The position numbers were made by a program, and so were the translations under genes. 43,660 nt of DNA from an uncultured Candidatus Saccharibacteria bacterium (GTDB lineage: Bacteria > Patescibacteriota > Minisyncoccia > Phycocordibacterales > UBA2100), in NCBI GenBank assembly GCA_964584225.1, contig CAZOZG010000003.1:14915-58574 (forward strand), given 5' to 3'. Each line of letters begins with the position of its first letter. The first letter of the stretch is position 1. This document shows positions 19-8,776 of this stretch, piece by piece. Under the pieces are notes generated by a model. That model did not search any database and was not told the DNA's origin. It saw nothing but the letters and a program-made list of their open reading frames with translations.

Positions 19-792
19 AGGCCCAACGACACACCCCTCCCTGAAGCAATGCCCTATATTGTCGTGGTGATCGACGAACTGGCCGACATTATGTCGACAT
101 ACCCGCGCGAGCTCGAAGGCGGTATCGTGCGCCTCGCACAGATGAGCCGCGCTGTCGGCATCCACTTGATTCTCTCGACGCAACGCCCAAGTGTGAAAGT
201 CATCACCGGTCTCATCAAAGCCAACATCCCCGCACGCGTCGCGCTCCAGGTCGCTTCGCAAATCGATTCGCGCACGATTCTTGATACCGGCGGCGCTGAA
301 AAATTGCTCGGTGCCGGTGACATGCTTTTCCTCTCAGGCGAAATGAGTAAGCCGCGCCGCATCCAAGCGCCCTACATTTCAGAATCGGAAGTGAAGCAGG
401 TGGTCGGCTACGTCGCCAAGCAAGGCGAAGGTACACTACAAAATGAAATCGACCTGACCGAGGGCAAGGTCGGGGCGATGGCGGGCGGAGATCCAATTTT
501 CTCAGCAGCGCTCGAAGATGAAGACGAGGACGATCTCTACCCTGCTGCGAAACAAACAGTGCTCGAAGCAGGCAAAGCATCGACATCCTACCTCCAGCGC
601 AAACTCGGGGTCGGTTACGCACGCGCCGCAAAATTAATCGACATGCTTGAAGCGCGAGGCATCGTGGGACCGGCAGATGGATCGAAACCGCGCGACGTGA
701 TTGGCGGGACCGAAACTGAAATGCCAGATACGTCGTCAGAAAACGCCCCCGACGAACCTGCCGAGGAAACAATGGAAGAAGAAACTGTATGA
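19..792 (+). CDS. ftsK: FtsK/SpoIIIE DNA translocase, C-terminal part (motor Walker B region and gamma domain); 5' part lies outside the window
   Basis: LPEAMPYIVVVIDELAD (Walker B), RLAQMSRAVGIHLILSTQRPS, GAEKLLGAGDML, gamma domain ASTSYLQRKLGVGYARAAKLID. Confidence 0.95.
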   Translation, partial: RPNDTPLPEAMPYIVVVIDELADIMSTYPRELEGGIVRLAQMSRAVGIHLILSTQRPSVKVITGLIKANIPARVALQVASQIDSRTILDTGGAEKLLGAGDMLFLSGEMSKPRRIQAPYISESEVKQVVGYVAKQGEGTLQNEIDLTEGKVGAMAGGDPIFSAALEDEDEDDLYPAAKQTVLEAGKASTSYLQRKLGVGYARAAKLIDMLEARGIVGPADGSKPRDVIGGTETEMPDTSSENAPDEPAEETMEEETV

Positions 793-4492: not shown

Positions 4493-5230
4493 CTATTTAA
4501 ACGAGCGTGCCGTTTTCCAAGCCATGTCGAAAAGCGCCTTCATACTATCTGCAATTGTTTTATCCTCTATTCGAACAACGAACGTATCGTGTTCGCTTAA
4601 ACGGAACAGCGTTATCACATCACCATAGATGAGCGAATCGTGTGCAAATCCATCAACAGTTGCAATGCGCGTCAGATACGTCGGGCCCGCGACCTTGCCC
4701 ACAAGTCGCGCGTATCGACGCGCACCCTTCGTATCTGCAATGATTTCGCGAACAGAAATGCTTTTCTCGCGAACCGTTTCGGCGACTTCCATATTCACGT
4801 CGTGAAATGGAACTTCACTCGCTTCTATATGAGACCAAATGCGAATACTGTGCGCATTCTTCAATTCTCGATATACCATGCTGATTCCTTCTTTACCGTC
4901 GTACACAACAACACGTGGTTTGCCAGGGACGTTCGATCGCAATTTCAAGAATTCCGGCATGGCGGCGCGGATATGTGAAAGGTTTCTTGCGAGTCGATCT
5001 TCCAGAACCTTCGGATCCGCCGCCCGATAATACCGTTTGTTATTTACTCTGACTTCTTCAAAAAGTCTTTGTTTGATTAACTCATCAATCTGAATGTACA
5101 CGGTGGGGCGCTTCAAACCTGATTTCCTTGCAATGTCTTGCACGGATGTAGTTCCGAGCGATAGCGCGGCAAGATAAACAGCCGATGCCTTGTCGCCAAG
5201 TCCGATTGACTGAAGTGTTTCGGTCTTCAT
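4493..5230 (-). CDS. TrmB-family winged-helix transcriptional regulator
   Basis: LQSIGLGDKASAVYLAALSLG..SVQDIARKSGLKRPTVY HTH; C-terminal IED..IA.SMKALFDMAW. Confidence 0.88.
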   Translation of the reverse strand: MKTETLQSIGLGDKASAVYLAALSLGTTSVQDIARKSGLKRPTVYIQIDELIKQRLFEEVRVNNKRYYRAADPKVLEDRLARNLSHIRAAMPEFLKLRSNVPGKPRVVVYDGKEGISMVYRELKNAHSIRIWSHIEASEVPFHDVNMEVAETVREKSISVREIIADTKGARRYARLVGKVAGPTYLTRIATVDGFAHDSLIYGDVITLFRLSEHDTFVVRIEDKTIADSMKALFDMAWKTARSFK

Positions 5231-5237
5231 GACTGTC

Positions 5238-5276
5238 AGCATAGTGAAATGGGCTAATTTGTCAATATTCCTGACA
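5238..5276 (-). promoter_or_regulatory. Sigma70 promoter of the TrmB-like gene, overlapped by an inverted repeat (candidate operator)
   Basis: Minus strand TTGACA (5265-5260), 16 nt, TATGCT (5243-5238), 7 nt, ATG; TGTCA-N7-TGACA at 5260-5276. Confidence 0.55.
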
Positions 5277-5409
5277 GAAATACCCCAAATAGCTTATGTC
5301 TTAAGCCATAAATACACCGAGCAGCACAGATATTCGGATAAATCGCTGACTTTATGTCCTATTTTATATAGTCTTATAGGGGAATAAAAGCAAACCCAAG
5401 GAGAAAGAC

Positions 5410-6009
5410 ATGAACGGAGGTTTCGGTTATCTTGGCGCAGCCCACGCTTACCGAAAGGAGAAACTTTCAGAGCTTCCAAGAAACGAAGTGAAGGCGATGA
5501 TCGATGAGTGGAATAAAAAGACTCGCCTGCAGAAAATTTTCACCGAACTGACGCCCACGGCCTATGGCAGCGCGTGGATCGTTGCCGCAAAAGAGATCCA
5601 CGGTGGATACGAACAGGAATTACGTGAAAGCGACGAGCGCATGAGTCGGCGCTCCGGAGCTGTCATGATTATTCTCGTCACATACATCGTGAGTCTCGTA
5701 CTCATTGGCAACATGCTTGATTCTGGCATCACATGGGTCAGAGGGCTTGTTGCCTGGGCGATCGTCGGGATTATTGCAGGTGGAATGATGTCGGTTGCGA
5801 ACGCGATACACAGAAAAGACCCTGAACTTGCGCCGTTGCGCCGTATCTACTGGGTCGCTCAAGGCATTATCGCTCTAACGATCAGCGGTGGATCAATGGC
5901 TATCGTCGCGAGGTATGGCTTCGAGATGATTTCAACTGCGCTTCTGGTCTTTTGTTTCCTCGGCGGTGTGATGTTCACATTCAGGGGATGCGCAGCAAAG
6001 CAAGTATAA
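5410..6009 (+). CDS. Hypothetical membrane protein (4 C-terminal TM segments)
   Basis: SD AAGGAG before ATG; hydrophobic C-terminal half; terminator follows. Confidence 0.7.
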   Translation: MNGGFGYLGAAHAYRKEKLSELPRNEVKAMIDEWNKKTRLQKIFTELTPTAYGSAWIVAAKEIHGGYEQELRESDERMSRRSGAVMIILVTYIVSLVLIGNMLDSGITWVRGLVAWAIVGIIAGGMMSVANAIHRKDPELAPLRRIYWVAQGIIALTISGGSMAIVARYGFEMISTALLVFCFLGGVMFTFRGCAAKQV

Positions 6010-6011
6010 AG

Positions 6012-6038
6012 ACGGCGCGGCCCTTGAGGCCGCGCCGT
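6012..6038 (+). terminator. GC-rich hairpin, probable terminator
   Basis: ACGGCGCGGCC-CTTGA-GGCCGCGCCGT. Confidence 0.6.
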
Positions 6039-6058
6039 AACCTTTCATGCGATTGACT

Positions 6059-6192
6059 CTACTTCTGAATGTATGGGAGCACCCCACATGTCGGATCGCT
6101 ACTGCGATCCACACGCAGGGCCCGCCTCGCGATCCCACGTGCCGACGCACGTGGGCCCCTCGCTCCGGCCGTTTCTGCCTCTCATCCAAAAA
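6059..6192 (-). repeat. Gene-3'-end-associated structured element, copy A (behind rpsR)
   Basis: Inverted copy of the rpsR end (6171-6192), core GGCCGGAG-hairpin-GAGGCGGG-hairpin, recoded direct copy GVLPYIQK* (6085-6059). Confidence 0.8.
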
Positions 6193-6390
6193 TTATTTTT
6201 GGATATAGGGCAGAAGCCCCATGAAGCGTGCGCGTTTGATTGCTGCTTCTACAGAGCGCTGCTGCTTTGCCGTAAGGCCCGTGCGCTTCCTCGAAAGCGT
6301 GCGCCCGTGCGGATTCATGAATTGCTTCAAGAGGTCAACGTCTTTGTAATCGACGTACTGAATATCGTTTTGTGTGAGAATGTTTGCCAT
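6193..6390 (-). CDS. rpsR: 30S ribosomal protein bS18
   Basis: VDYKDVDLLKQF...RKRTGLTAKQQR...AIKRARFMGLLPY. Confidence 0.97.
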   Translation of the reverse strand: MANILTQNDIQYVDYKDVDLLKQFMNPHGRTLSRKRTGLTAKQQRSVEAAIKRARFMGLLPYIQK

Positions 6391-6393
6391 AGA

Positions 6394-6846
6394 CTAAAAC
6401 GGAATGTCGTCAGGATTAATATCGTCTTTCGGGTAATCGATGCCCGCACCGCCTCCGCCCGATGACTCTTCGGGGGGCGCAGCGTCATCAGATGAACGAC
6501 GTCCACCACCTCCGCCGCTCTTCGGCCCAAATTGCACGCGATCAGCGACGACTTCCGTGCGGTATTTCTTTTCGCCACTCCCTTTGTCTTCCCAGCTTCG
6601 CGTCTGCATGCGACCTTCGACAAACACAGAACTTCCCTTCTTGAGATACTGCGCGACGGTGTCTGCCTGGCGGCCGAAGACGACGACATTGTGAAAGTCT
6701 GTTTGCTCCTGCTTTTTGCCATCGCGGTCTCGGTAGACGCGATTCGTCGCGACTGAGAAATTGCACACGTTCATGCCGCTCGGAAGCGCGCGAAGCTCCG
6801 GATCACGCGTCAGATTACCAAACAGCATTGCTTTGTTGATGTACAT
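6394..6846 (-). CDS. ssb: Single-stranded DNA-binding protein
   Basis: GNLTRDPELR, EGRMQTRSW, C-terminal DDIPF. Confidence 0.98.
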   Translation of the reverse strand: MYINKAMLFGNLTRDPELRALPSGMNVCNFSVATNRVYRDRDGKKQEQTDFHNVVVFGRQADTVAQYLKKGSSVFVEGRMQTRSWEDKGSGEKKYRTEVVADRVQFGPKSGGGGGRRSSDDAAPPEESSGGGGAGIDYPKDDINPDDIPF

Positions 6847-6849
6847 ATA

Positions 6850-7365
6850 TTAGTTGACGGTGATGTCTTGGAGTGCTTTGTCGAGATCTTCCTCAGAGAC
6901 AGGCGCTGCAGCCTCTTCTGCTCGGCGCGGCGTCGACTTAATCACATCCGTGCGCTTCACTTCGCGTAGTGTCGGAGCCTTAATCTTGGCACGAGTATCT
7001 TCACGCACGGTGCGAAAGATGATAAAGCGCAAAATCGTTGCGTCTGCCTTCAAAGTTTCTTCAAGCGCAGCGACAGATGACGTGGCTGCTTCAAATTTGA
7101 TCCATCCAAAATAGCCTCGATCAAACTCAACCGTGCGATCACCCTCTTTGCCACTCATGTCATATGCGAGCTTCGTGAGCGCAGGCGCACCTTCAGCAAT
7201 AAATGAACCGCCGGCTTTCTCAATCGCCGCGCGGATGGTACCGACATGCTTTTCCAAATCTTCCTCCTTGATGGATGGTGAGATCGTATATCCGACCTCG
7301 TAGATGCGAAGCGTCGCCTCTTCGGCGCCGTCTTCGACCTTCACTGCGTCCTTGTTTTCAGCCAT
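6850..7365 (-). CDS. rpsF: 30S ribosomal protein bS6 with N- and C-terminal extensions
   Basis: RIYEVGYTISP, KLAYDM, GYFGWIKF, ILRFIIF; rpsF-ssb-rpsR synteny. Confidence 0.9.
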   Translation of the reverse strand: MAENKDAVKVEDGAEEATLRIYEVGYTISPSIKEEDLEKHVGTIRAAIEKAGGSFIAEGAPALTKLAYDMSGKEGDRTVEFDRGYFGWIKFEAATSSVAALEETLKADATILRFIIFRTVREDTRAKIKAPTLREVKRTDVIKSTPRRAEEAAAPVSEEDLDKALQDITVN

Positions 7366-7410
7366 GTAGCGGGCACTGTAACACGCGCTCTTTCGAGGAG
7401 CAAGAAGAAA

Positions 7411-7444
7411 GAGCCCCGAAGCGGCAGTCGCCGCTTCGGGGCTC
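7411..7444 (-). terminator. Rho-independent terminator after the aminotransferase
   Basis: 15-bp perfect stem GAGCCCCGAAGCGGC/GCCGCTTCGGGGCTC followed by TTTCTTCTT on the minus strand. Confidence 0.75.
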
Positions 7445-7451
7445 ACATGCA

Positions 7452-8711
7452 TCACCAGGGATGCTTATAACGGTACGAGAGTTCGGCCGATACTGCGTAC
7501 ACTTCCGTCCCGTGTTTGAGCGTATCTTCGGGTTGAAACGTGAACGGAATTCGATTGTGATTGCGCATCGGATTCTTCCGATACGGATAGGCAGAGTCGT
7601 AATCGGTGAGGATCACGCCTGCATCTTTGCAAAGCTTCTGCGCATGCTCTGCGCAGTTCTCGGCAAGCATCACGGAGACGAAATATCCGCCCTCGATCTT
7701 GCTCCATTTCGCGATCGGCGAATTACCCAGACGACTTGAGAGCACGTTTTCAACGACGGCGAGTTTCGGTCGCAAGATCGTTGCGTGACGAGCCATGTGC
7801 CGCCGCAGCGTTGGCATGTTGCGAAGAAAGCGGATGTGGCGAAGCTGATTGAGTTTCTCAGACCCAATCGTTCGCTTCTCGAGACTTCGGCCAAACCACT
7901 CCAAGTTTTTTGGCGAGCTCGCGATGAACGCAAGCGCGCCGCCCGGATGCGTCACCTTCGAAAGTGAGCCGAAGATAAAGATCCGGTCGCTCGTCCCCGC
8001 TTCACGGGCGTAACGCATGATATCGGGCGCCTTGCGGACTACCGACGTAAGTCCGTGAACCGCATAGGCGTTGTCCCACATCACGACGAAACCGGGACAC
8101 GCGGTTTTCATCGTCGCCAGCTCCTTGGCTACGGCCTCGCTGAGGATGGCGCCGGTCGGGTTCCAGTACAGAGGAACACACCAGATGCCGACATAGGATG
8201 GATCTTTCACGAGTTCGCGGACGATGGCCATGTCGGGCCCATCCTTCAGAAGTGGCACCGGCGTCATCTCGACGTCCAAGTCTTCACACACGCCGAAATG
8301 CCGATCGTAGCCCGGGACCGGACAGATGAACTTGGGCTTCATGCCGGGCGCTTTCCAGCCCGCAAGACCCTTGCGAAGTCCGAGACCGATAACGTTGTGC
8401 ATCAACATCAAACTCGAGTTGCCGATGACAGCTGTCTCCTCGTATTTCGTCCCGAGATAGCGGGCCGCGAAAACCCGCGCCGCCGGCAAACCGAACAACA
8501 GATCGACACCGCTGTAGTTGCGACAATCGATGATGGTGCCGTCTTTCGCCTCAGCGTACTTTGCCTTGATGTTGAACATTCGATCCGAAAGATCGAGCTG
8601 CTCGCTGCACGGGTTGCCCCGTTTCATGTCGACGTTGATTTTCTTGTCGGCGAGCCCGCGATAGCGAGCCCACAGACGGTCCATGTATGGACCTTTTTCC
8701 GCTGGAATCAT
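7452..8711 (-). CDS. PLP-dependent aminotransferase, actinobacterial aspartate aminotransferase (AspT/AspB)-like
   Basis: MKRGNPCSEQLDLS, CPVPGYDRHF, WCVPLYWNPTG, WDNAYAVH, GSLSKVTHPG (PLP lysine), NQLRHIRF. Confidence 0.88.
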   Translation of the reverse strand: MIPAEKGPYMDRLWARYRGLADKKINVDMKRGNPCSEQLDLSDRMFNIKAKYAEAKDGTIIDCRNYSGVDLLFGLPAARVFAARYLGTKYEETAVIGNSSLMLMHNVIGLGLRKGLAGWKAPGMKPKFICPVPGYDRHFGVCEDLDVEMTPVPLLKDGPDMAIVRELVKDPSYVGIWCVPLYWNPTGAILSEAVAKELATMKTACPGFVVMWDNAYAVHGLTSVVRKAPDIMRYAREAGTSDRIFIFGSLSKVTHPGGALAFIASSPKNLEWFGRSLEKRTIGSEKLNQLRHIRFLRNMPTLRRHMARHATILRPKLAVVENVLSSRLGNSPIAKWSKIEGGYFVSVMLAENCAEHAQKLCKDAGVILTDYDSAYPYRKNPMRNHNRIPFTFQPEDTLKHGTEVYAVSAELSYRYKHPW

Positions 8712-8776
8712 TCTCTACTCCCCTTTTCTGTGCCGTTGATGACACTCTTTTTTTAAAGTAACCATATCTGAGCACA

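Follow-up and report, generated by a model that had tools for sequence, protein, structure and literature searches.

Why should a gene for a ribosomal protein appear to end twice? The question arises in a 43,660-nucleotide (nt) stretch of DNA from an uncultured Candidatus Saccharibacteria bacterium (GenBank assembly GCA_964584225.1, contig CAZOZG010000003.1, positions 14,915 to 58,574), which is called the window below. Here rpsR, the gene for ribosomal protein S18 (6390-6193, minus strand, as are all window features given below; 65 amino acids; Pfam Ribosomal_S18, E 4.5e-23), closes with its last eight sense codons and stop, GGG CTT CTG CCC TAT ATC CAA AAA TAA (GLLPYIQK*, 6219-6193; block A). 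A second string, GGG GTG CTC CCA TAC ATT CAG AAG TAG (GVLPYIQK*, 6085-6059; block A2), follows at an offset of 134 nt and is therefore out of frame with rpsR. From codon 2 to codon 9, stop included, every third base differs between the two strings, and the sole change in the peptide is L to V. A degenerate pattern for LPYIQK and stop matched exactly 2 sites in the window and none in 100 dinucleotide shuffles. An earlier note on this DNA had described both gene ends and an inverted segment between them, and this description was correct in every detail: positions 6192-6171 pair with A at 19 and with A2 at 17 of 22 positions if G-U pairs are allowed, and at 17 and 13 positions if only Watson-Crick pairs are counted. 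In our reading, the two ends would be copies of a target block flanking a small non-coding element. The best explanation, to which we assign a probability of about 0.55, is a small mobile element, non-autonomous and inserted at RNA or gene 3' ends in such a way that the host gene stays whole; it carries an antisense segment matched to its locus, and the codon-like appearance of A2 would be due to pairing and drift.

The ends of rpsR were read at 25 loci of the genus. Of these, 23 read GLLP[YF][IV]QK*, one ALLPYVQK* and one GLLPYTQK*, and since all end in this motif or a near variant, the present rpsR end is the normal one. The downstream set, consisting of the antisense segment, a GC-rich core, A2 with its own stop and a terminator, was present at 6 of these loci. 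In relatives free of the element, the rpsR stop is directly followed by a terminator and by the same convergent gene that is found after A2 in the carriers, and this synteny identifies the extra DNA as an insertion relative to them. In the window, an intrinsic-terminator-like hairpin of 12 pairs, 10 of them G-C, stands 3' of A2 (6038-6012); it is presumably the original rpsR terminator, as its position is equivalent to that relative to the rpsR stop in element-free relatives. In one relative (L010) only the start of the antisense segment fused to the end of A2 remains, which reads as a deletion remnant. The notion of an inserted element with a duplicated gene end, put forward in the earlier note, was thus borne out by the synteny, and the same type of duplication occurs at many other gene ends. 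The claim that the element had supplied the gene end held for the insertion and the duplication; A and A2 were interchangeable in every model tested, so that the present end fits supply as well as duplication. That the duplicate might belong to a longer, decayed rpsR paralogue did not apply, as a conserved RNA core lies upstream of it.

From copy to copy, the element in the window measures 134 nt, made up of the antisense segment A' (21 nt), the core (90 nt) and a single copy of the block. A' (6192-6172), an inverted repeat, begins directly 3' of the rpsR stop and abuts the first base of the core at 6171. The core (6171-6082) lies between A' and A2, whose initial GGG doubles as the end of core helix P3. 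According to the computed pairings, A' is able to pair alternatively with A or with A2, the latter forming helix P1. With the gene end included, the predicted fold has a free energy of -90.7 kcal/mol (z = -7.9 versus shuffles) and A:A' is favoured; without the gene end, P1 forms at -69.3 kcal/mol (z = -5.7).

The core itself folds into a three-way junction, as obtained by RNAalifold from an alignment of 26 copies. Helix P2 (6171-6122) consists of outer C.GCC/GGC.G pairs, a GGA/GAG internal loop, GCGA/TCGC and a 9-base-pair hairpin, and was found by RNAalifold, pair counts and a single-sequence fold alike. Helix P3 (6120-6082), found by RNAalifold and pair counts, joins CCCUGCGUG:CAUGUGGGG with conserved G-U pairs and is capped by a 7-base-pair hairpin. 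Across copies, the outer pairs of P2 show G-C to A-U swaps around the 3x3 GGA/GAG loop and a variable hairpin, and P3 keeps nine pairs including the G-U pairs with the second hairpin as a cap. Compensatory double changes occurred in 17 of the 24 RNAalifold pairs. A covariance model of the core (R1), which scored 102.5 bits at the window core, gave 74 distinct matches. In these 74 rows, 94.5% of the paired cells were compatible with pairing (68.8% in shuffles), changes on both sides were seen in 22 of 23 pairs, and the covariation score was 0.589 compared to 0.156 in shuffles and at most 0.09 with the partners slid, in an alignment that is fitted to R1 and whose sequences are kin. The P3 G-U pair at columns 163:227 was kept in 67 of the 74 rows. 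Two core subtypes have their P3 pairs swapped (C-G/G-C, U-A/A-U) around the same G-U positions.

On this comparative evidence, the core is a structured RNA. Because of the conserved G-U pairs, only the strand of the upstream gene can adopt the fold; this suggests an RNA or, less likely, a single DNA strand. A search of the window stretch against Rfam 15 with E up to 10 returned only chance matches below gathering, none of them on the core, and none of five diverse copies had a match on the core with E up to 1, so that no known ribozyme or intron model matched the core in the window or in these five copies. A scan of 8 loci at gathering level found a tRNA (transfer RNA) only. On reading the junction and loop nucleotides, we also dropped hammerhead, hepatitis delta virus-like and k-turn motifs, with which neither the strands of the junction nor the 3x3 GGA/GAG loop agree. 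Literature searches at the level of titles and abstract openings returned no description of this element, and the element family built on this fold is apparently undescribed.

With regards to its distribution, R1 matched at 74 places in 39 of the 116 genomes of the genus, with up to 7 cores per genome (G093, G120) and a single one in the genome of the window. These genomes measure approximately 1 Mb. Outside the genus, a sample at order level contained the core in 3 of 150 genomes, and among 34 metagenome loci it was found at 24 places. A pattern scan of public contigs produced many chance matches in high-GC genomes and at least five true cores. Among the pattern matches listed there, 5 of 11 tested were clear R1 matches (E < 1e-4), on contigs titled Candidatus Kaiserbacteria, Nomurabacteria and Saccharibacteria. 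Two pattern matches on viral contigs scored 14-17 bits and were no true cores.

The flanks of 75 copies were inspected, and each copy showed the same layout of A, usually a hairpin, A', core and A2. The hairpin before A' is often terminator-like and has a conserved CTGC loop in one subtype. In all copies, A' has a locus-specific counterpart at the same position and is complementary to the start of the block, and the element is always co-oriented with, and just downstream of, a gene or terminator. More than 10 unrelated targets combine a locus-matched antisense segment with a direct repeat. Apart from rpsR, to which copies are linked in 19 genomes, they include topA (2 copies) and co-oriented tRNA genes of at least seven types (Glu, Lys, Arg, Val, Ile, Leu, Tyr; 16 of 75 copies). 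They also include rpsI for ribosomal protein S9, where the gene end ...PQWSKR* is repeated together with the stop in 4 of the 75 copies and additionally at L263 in another family. Others, such as rplB and uppS, are hit through their terminators (terminator-linked examples are L043, L054, L213, L215 and L261). The target block stands on both sides of the insert, which leaves the host gene intact. Its length varies from about 8 to about 70 nt, that of the A' guide from 8 to 22 nt, and inserts measure roughly 110-200 nt. In 29 of the 75 copies, the A-A2 repeat exceeded the 95th percentile of a cross-locus control. Behind tRNA genes, the block was duplicated from the T-loop to the 3' end in L244 (18 nt exact), L239 (16 nt exact) and L262, where the exact repeat of 32 nt, determined by eye, extends to 13 nt past the tRNA. 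Helix P1 between A' and A2 closes the junction with a median of 8 pairs, compared to 4 for mismatched loci. None of the 75 inserts contained an open reading frame (ORF), and between the repeats nothing beyond hairpin, A' and core was found.

Furthermore, copies occur as tandem units (L211, L263, L283), as arrays behind tRNA genes (L238) and with a smaller insert nested in the second hairpin of the core (L063, approximately 1554-1640; L214, upstream of 824; L221, 1399-1574, minus strand). The nested repeat is made up of a GC-rich hairpin, a miniature GGCCGGAGC...GCGAGGC motif and a TTTTCAGCAGAAAAGTA-like hairpin, and these cases appear to be elements inserted into elements. Another short repeat family was observed in the flanks of L224, L225, L238, L282 and L207. 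It consists of GGGGTCGCG, an A/T-rich hairpin and CGTGACC, often with a copy of a tRNA 3' end, and forms arrays with core elements downstream of tRNA genes. The terminator-linked copies of one subtype (L055, L056, L203, L226, L237, L261) stand behind a conserved non-coding stretch (…GAAAGTCGCG/A…), located 60-130 nt upstream of the core and downstream of a gene for a Wzy_C/TPR protein. At gathering level Rfam gave no match to this stretch, which may represent a small RNA or 3' untranslated region that has so far escaped description. At L056, a sub-threshold match to a T-box leader was noted as well (523-727, minus strand; 60 bits versus a gathering value of 93, E 3.6e-11).

The complete wobble divergence between the two gene ends was compared over the eight codons of the 19 rpsR-linked copies from 19 genomes. 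The number of identical third bases was 0, 2, 2, 3, 3, 3, 3, 3, 4, 4, 4, 4, 5, 5, 5, 6, 6, 7 and 8, with a mean of 4.05 within a genome and 4.13 across genomes, and 6495 of 10000 permutations reached the observed mean. The zero of the window falls at the lower extreme of a saturated distribution and reflects drift. Five of its eight third-base changes are transitions that keep the pairing with A' through G-U. At the other end, all eight third bases are identical in L216 and seven in L050, and in the metagenomic L283 about 24 nt are identical by eye up to the stop codon, which differs. For L216 and L283, the simplest explanation is that gene conversion or a duplication took place recently. In longer forms of the rpsR copies, A' read as its reverse complement gives the gene end a third time, including the stop and split by a small hairpin. 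This third copy matches A in some genomes and A2 in others, as expected from occasional templated repair among the three copies.

A2 nevertheless varies like a coding sequence: minor alleles at codon positions 1, 2 and 3 numbered 13, 9 and 60 in A2 and 6, 7 and 49 in A, the A2 stop codon was always kept, and the Y/F and I/V states agreed with the gene in 19 of 19 copies. The rpsR A2 faces A' over its whole length, and A' has to pair with the coding copy as well; codon positions 1 and 2 are thereby fixed through two helices, whereas the third tolerates G-U pairs or mismatches. The first one or two A2 codons vary freely because they are part of P3 (GGG, GGC, AGG, GAG, GCC; one copy has a 1-nt deletion). 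At topA, where the duplicate measures about 70 nt and A' covers only 11 nt of it, A2 beyond A' has decayed in L229 with indels and loss of frame, and is still nearly identical to the gene end in L234. The free first codons, the constraint by P1 and the topA decay together argue that the codon-like character of A2 is not due to translation. It probably results from pairing with A' and occasional gene conversion, to which we attribute the Y/F agreement, with peptide selection as the alternative.

These data also bear on two rival explanations that take the second gene end at face value. The earlier note had regarded it as part of an insertion that supplied a replacement gene end, with a complete wobble divergence that could reflect a donor of another lineage or selection for escape from re-targeting. 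The window copy alone would suit this idea, as it shares no third base with the gene and keeps the peptide, and the nearly equal identity within and between genomes would fit a different ancestry. However, a spread over the full range with a mean no higher than across genomes does not resemble a design, and L216, L050 and L283 show no avoidance of identity. Moreover, A' still pairs with both copies, which means that nothing has escaped, and non-coding targets are duplicated in the same way without any recoding. Recoded rescue was already disfavoured and receives hardly any weight from us. Alternatively, A2 might truly be coding, if RNA processing or splicing removed the 134 nt between the two Gly codons in some transcripts, or if ribosomes hopped across them, GGG to GGG; A2 would then be the end that is translated, maintained by selection on the protein. 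Its codon periodicity, which equals that of A, the invariable stop, the agreement in Y/F and I/V, and some Y/F states left unexplained by A' would favour such a role, but the unprocessed rpsR already encodes the full protein, leaving nothing to select. Together with the free first codons and the single deletion in P3, the frameshifts of the topA duplicate outside A', and the lack of any ribozyme or intron family match, this makes a coding A2 very unlikely.

The main rival is a host RNA switch at the 3' ends of highly expressed genes, in which the choice between A:A' and A':A2 controls read-through, 3' processing or stability. Selection for the switch would maintain the three matched segments, and its copies would have spread by rare duplication. 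This would account for the strong strand-specific covariation with its conserved G-U pairs, the constant co-orientation with the upstream gene, the bracketing by terminator-like hairpins, the two mutually exclusive and very stable predicted folds, and the long persistence at rpsR in 19 genomes, where both helices have been kept. A switch of this kind would be dispensable, though, given the few carriers inside the genus and in the rest of the order, and selection alone cannot make exact duplications of 16-32 nt plus an antisense match at more than 10 unrelated loci. As tandem and nested copies are element-like behaviour and no riboswitch or leader of Rfam matched, we consider this explanation possible but rather unlikely. 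Another rival holds that the copies are leftovers of larger integrative elements, with the repeats as attL and attR, the core as a piece next to attP and the rest deleted. The duplication of tRNA genes from the T-loop to the 3' end is a classic signature of integrases, and a tyrosine recombinase was present in every genome checked. On the other hand, the 75 inserts hold no further element DNA between their repeats, a single integrase family could not act on attachment sequences of more than 10 different kinds, the Xer-like match was a single one in 4 of the 5 genomes checked (G129 holds 12), and the 2 viral contigs matched contained no true core. We therefore regard such an origin as highly improbable.

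For the small mobile element that we prefer, the following course would be the most likely. A' would select the target site by base pairing, and the intermediate would be an RNA. On insertion, the block reaching from the site of pairing to where the gene or transcript ends would be duplicated, so that the host gene survives. Thereafter, A2 would be held to A' through P1 while its third positions drift, with the copies now and then homogenised by gene conversion. The element would be, or have been, mobile, and many of its copies may be old. The route may be RNA-templated or proceed by recombination. A bolder version, which we put forward with considerable reserve and consider rather improbable, makes the roughly 90-nt RNA with its programmable antisense segment the working part of a novel type of mobile element. 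This RNA would be co-transcribed with the host gene and find the 3' end of a transcript or gene by A'. Copying would then return it to DNA, perhaps in several units if the copying circles between the identical blocks, and the gene end would be regenerated on both sides.

Several points weigh against the reading as a small mobile element. The variable repeat length fits no target duplication made by a known transposase, and the data offer no explanation of how A' comes to match a new target. Core subtypes are associated with target classes, and different species share several orthologous insertions, so that much of the distribution could be old and vertical and not due to recent movement. The covariation rests on related sequences fitted to one model, as stated above. 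A' does not follow the Y/F state in every genome although A and A2 agree throughout, which requires gene conversion or some peptide selection. In four sets of DNA contigs over 5700-6700, no joint skipping 6059-6219 and no variant inside the element was found, with contigs being blind to rare empty alleles; neither an empty allele nor a circle was observed. Finally, no helper enzyme tracking the element was found among RVT_1, Drt2, IS110-type transposase, TnpB, tyrosine integrase and Y1_Tnp, whether multi-copy genomes were compared with zero-copy genomes or the whole genus was considered. RVT_1 was equally frequent in multi-copy and zero-copy genomes (2 of 5 each) and had no match in G093 with its 7 cores. 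Drt2-level matches were limited to 2 of the 116 genomes, with G120 over the NCBIfam cut-off and G101 just under it; two cores lie just upstream in G120 and none in the neighbourhood in G101. An IS110-type transposase occurred in 1 and TnpB in 0 of 5 genomes, and a Xer-like integrase in each of 5, with a single match in four of them and 12 in G129. Y1_Tnp was found in 108 of 116 genomes irrespective of the core, and G129 with its 5 cores had no Y1 match.

Frames of about 230 amino acids matching Y1_Tnp (HUH tyrosine transposase/RAYT-like) reach up to 16 per genome of approximately 1 Mb, which is striking for reduced genomes, and the genome of the window contains them at G000:C22:1794-2138 and C19:15244-15465 as well as in one more place. 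At L247 (G120:C3:203000-215000), a reverse transcriptase (RT) ORF at 4682-6139 is accompanied by cores at 6597-6686 and 8646-8735, all on the minus strand. The RT is of the Drt2 type (NCBIfam NF041746, 392 bits; PADLOC Drt2, E 4.6e-127). Upstream of it, one core lies at a distance of about 460 nt and the other at 2.5 kb; the RT shares their strand and is convergent with tuf. The region from core to RT in G120 does not align with the other Drt2 locus. RT-like frames of about 365 amino acids are also found in the window's own genome (G000:C16:18256-18615 and C28:8690-9025), with weak matches of about 50 and 40 bits to the Drt2 model. They may belong to a diversity-generating retroelement and are unlinked to the rpsR element.

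The arrangement can further be compared with known systems. Islands and prophages with tyrosine recombinases insert into the 3' ends of tRNA or protein genes, and the host gene stays intact. The elements described here likewise have a gene's 3' block on both sides with the gene intact (rpsR, rpsI, topA, tRNAs). In contrast, they possess neither integrase nor ORF, have only 134 nt between the repeats at rpsR, carry inside the insert a further copy of the block in antisense as well as a structured RNA that is conserved, and use blocks of about 8 to about 70 nt at more than 10 targets for one family. Elements of the IS200/IS605 type, palindrome-associated transposable elements (PATE) and repetitive extragenic palindromes (REP/REPIN) with RAYT are small and rich in hairpins, and an internal guide of about 4 nt by the foot of a hairpin pairs with the left flank. 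Strand specificity, insertion immediately 3' of the recognised sequence and an internal guide are common to both, and Y1_Tnp genes are abundant in the genus, so widespread in fact that their presence does not discriminate. The guide of 8-22 nt, the conserved G-U pairs, the three-way junction and Y1_Tnp counts unrelated to the core differ, and the duplication of the target argues against membership in IS200/IS605, PATE or REPIN.

Miniature inverted-repeat transposable elements resemble the present elements in being short, non-coding and multi-copy with direct-repeat flanks and inverted-repeat ends, here A' and A2. However, the inverted ends copy the local target and differ at each locus, the direct repeat has no fixed length, and the interior is a covarying RNA fold. 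A derivative of this type or of a DDE transposase was rejected, as neither family-wide terminal inverted repeats nor a duplication of fixed length exist. In the non-coding RNA of DRT2, a stem joins the ends of the unit, and terminal repeats would let the copying enzyme go round by a template jump. Structured RNA, a stem joining the unit ends, end repeats and tandem units (L211, L263, L283) are found here as well. For DRT2, a non-coding RNA with rolling-circle reverse transcription is reported (10.1101/2024.05.08.593200, PMC12039810). The non-coding RNA of a DRT2 system was rejected as an identity of the core, since cores adjoin Drt2 only in G120 (2 copies), no Drt2 was found near any other copy, and the Drt2 of G101 is without a core. 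The variable and template repeats of a diversity-generating retroelement were likewise discarded: A and A2 differ at 9 positions, among them changes of the types C>G, T>G, G>C, T>C and C>T, which are not confined to adenines, and the RT-like matches of the genome lie on other contigs (C16, C28). Group IIC introns, according to PMC1702495, insert just 3' of intrinsic terminators or inverted repeats in the direction of transcription, with upstream recognition partly by pairing. The terminator-linked copies in sense orientation, exemplified above, are similar in this respect. Nonetheless, a core of 90 nt compares with several hundred in these introns and has no domain V/VI, no intron-encoded protein and no Rfam intron match, and the target is duplicated here, which retrohoming does not do. 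With a core this short and free of intron match and ORF, a group IIC intron was rejected.

Upstream of the element, rpsR is the last gene of the group rpsF-ssb-rpsR, with rpsF at 7455-6850 (Pfam Ribosomal_S6) and ssb at 6846-6394 (Pfam SSB). A GC-rich, terminator-like hairpin of 15 pairs (7444-7411) lies inside the 5' part of the rpsF frame of 201 amino acids (6850-7455), whose S6 domain begins only at residue 52. The true start of rpsF is probably downstream of this hairpin.

For sequence analysis, the A2 block of rpsR is a worked example of a non-coding sequence that looks protein-coding, with synonymous-only variation and a kept stop, plausibly brought about by two successive helices, and it is a trap for gene finders and for arguments of the dN/dS type. 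If the bolder version with the programmable antisense RNA were true, no smaller mobile element programmed by a guide would be known, and it would amount to a 'safe' way, found in nature, of inserting at the 3' ends of genes. On the reading as a small mobile element, the complementarity of each copy to its own target would point to base-pair-guided targeting by a very small RNA, which would bear on the choice of safe sites and could bear on programmable insertion. If the reading as a small mobile element holds, bacteria with genomes of approximately 1 Mb would carry tiny elements at the 3' ends of essential genes, among them those for ribosomal proteins, tRNAs and a topoisomerase, and these would be harmless to them.

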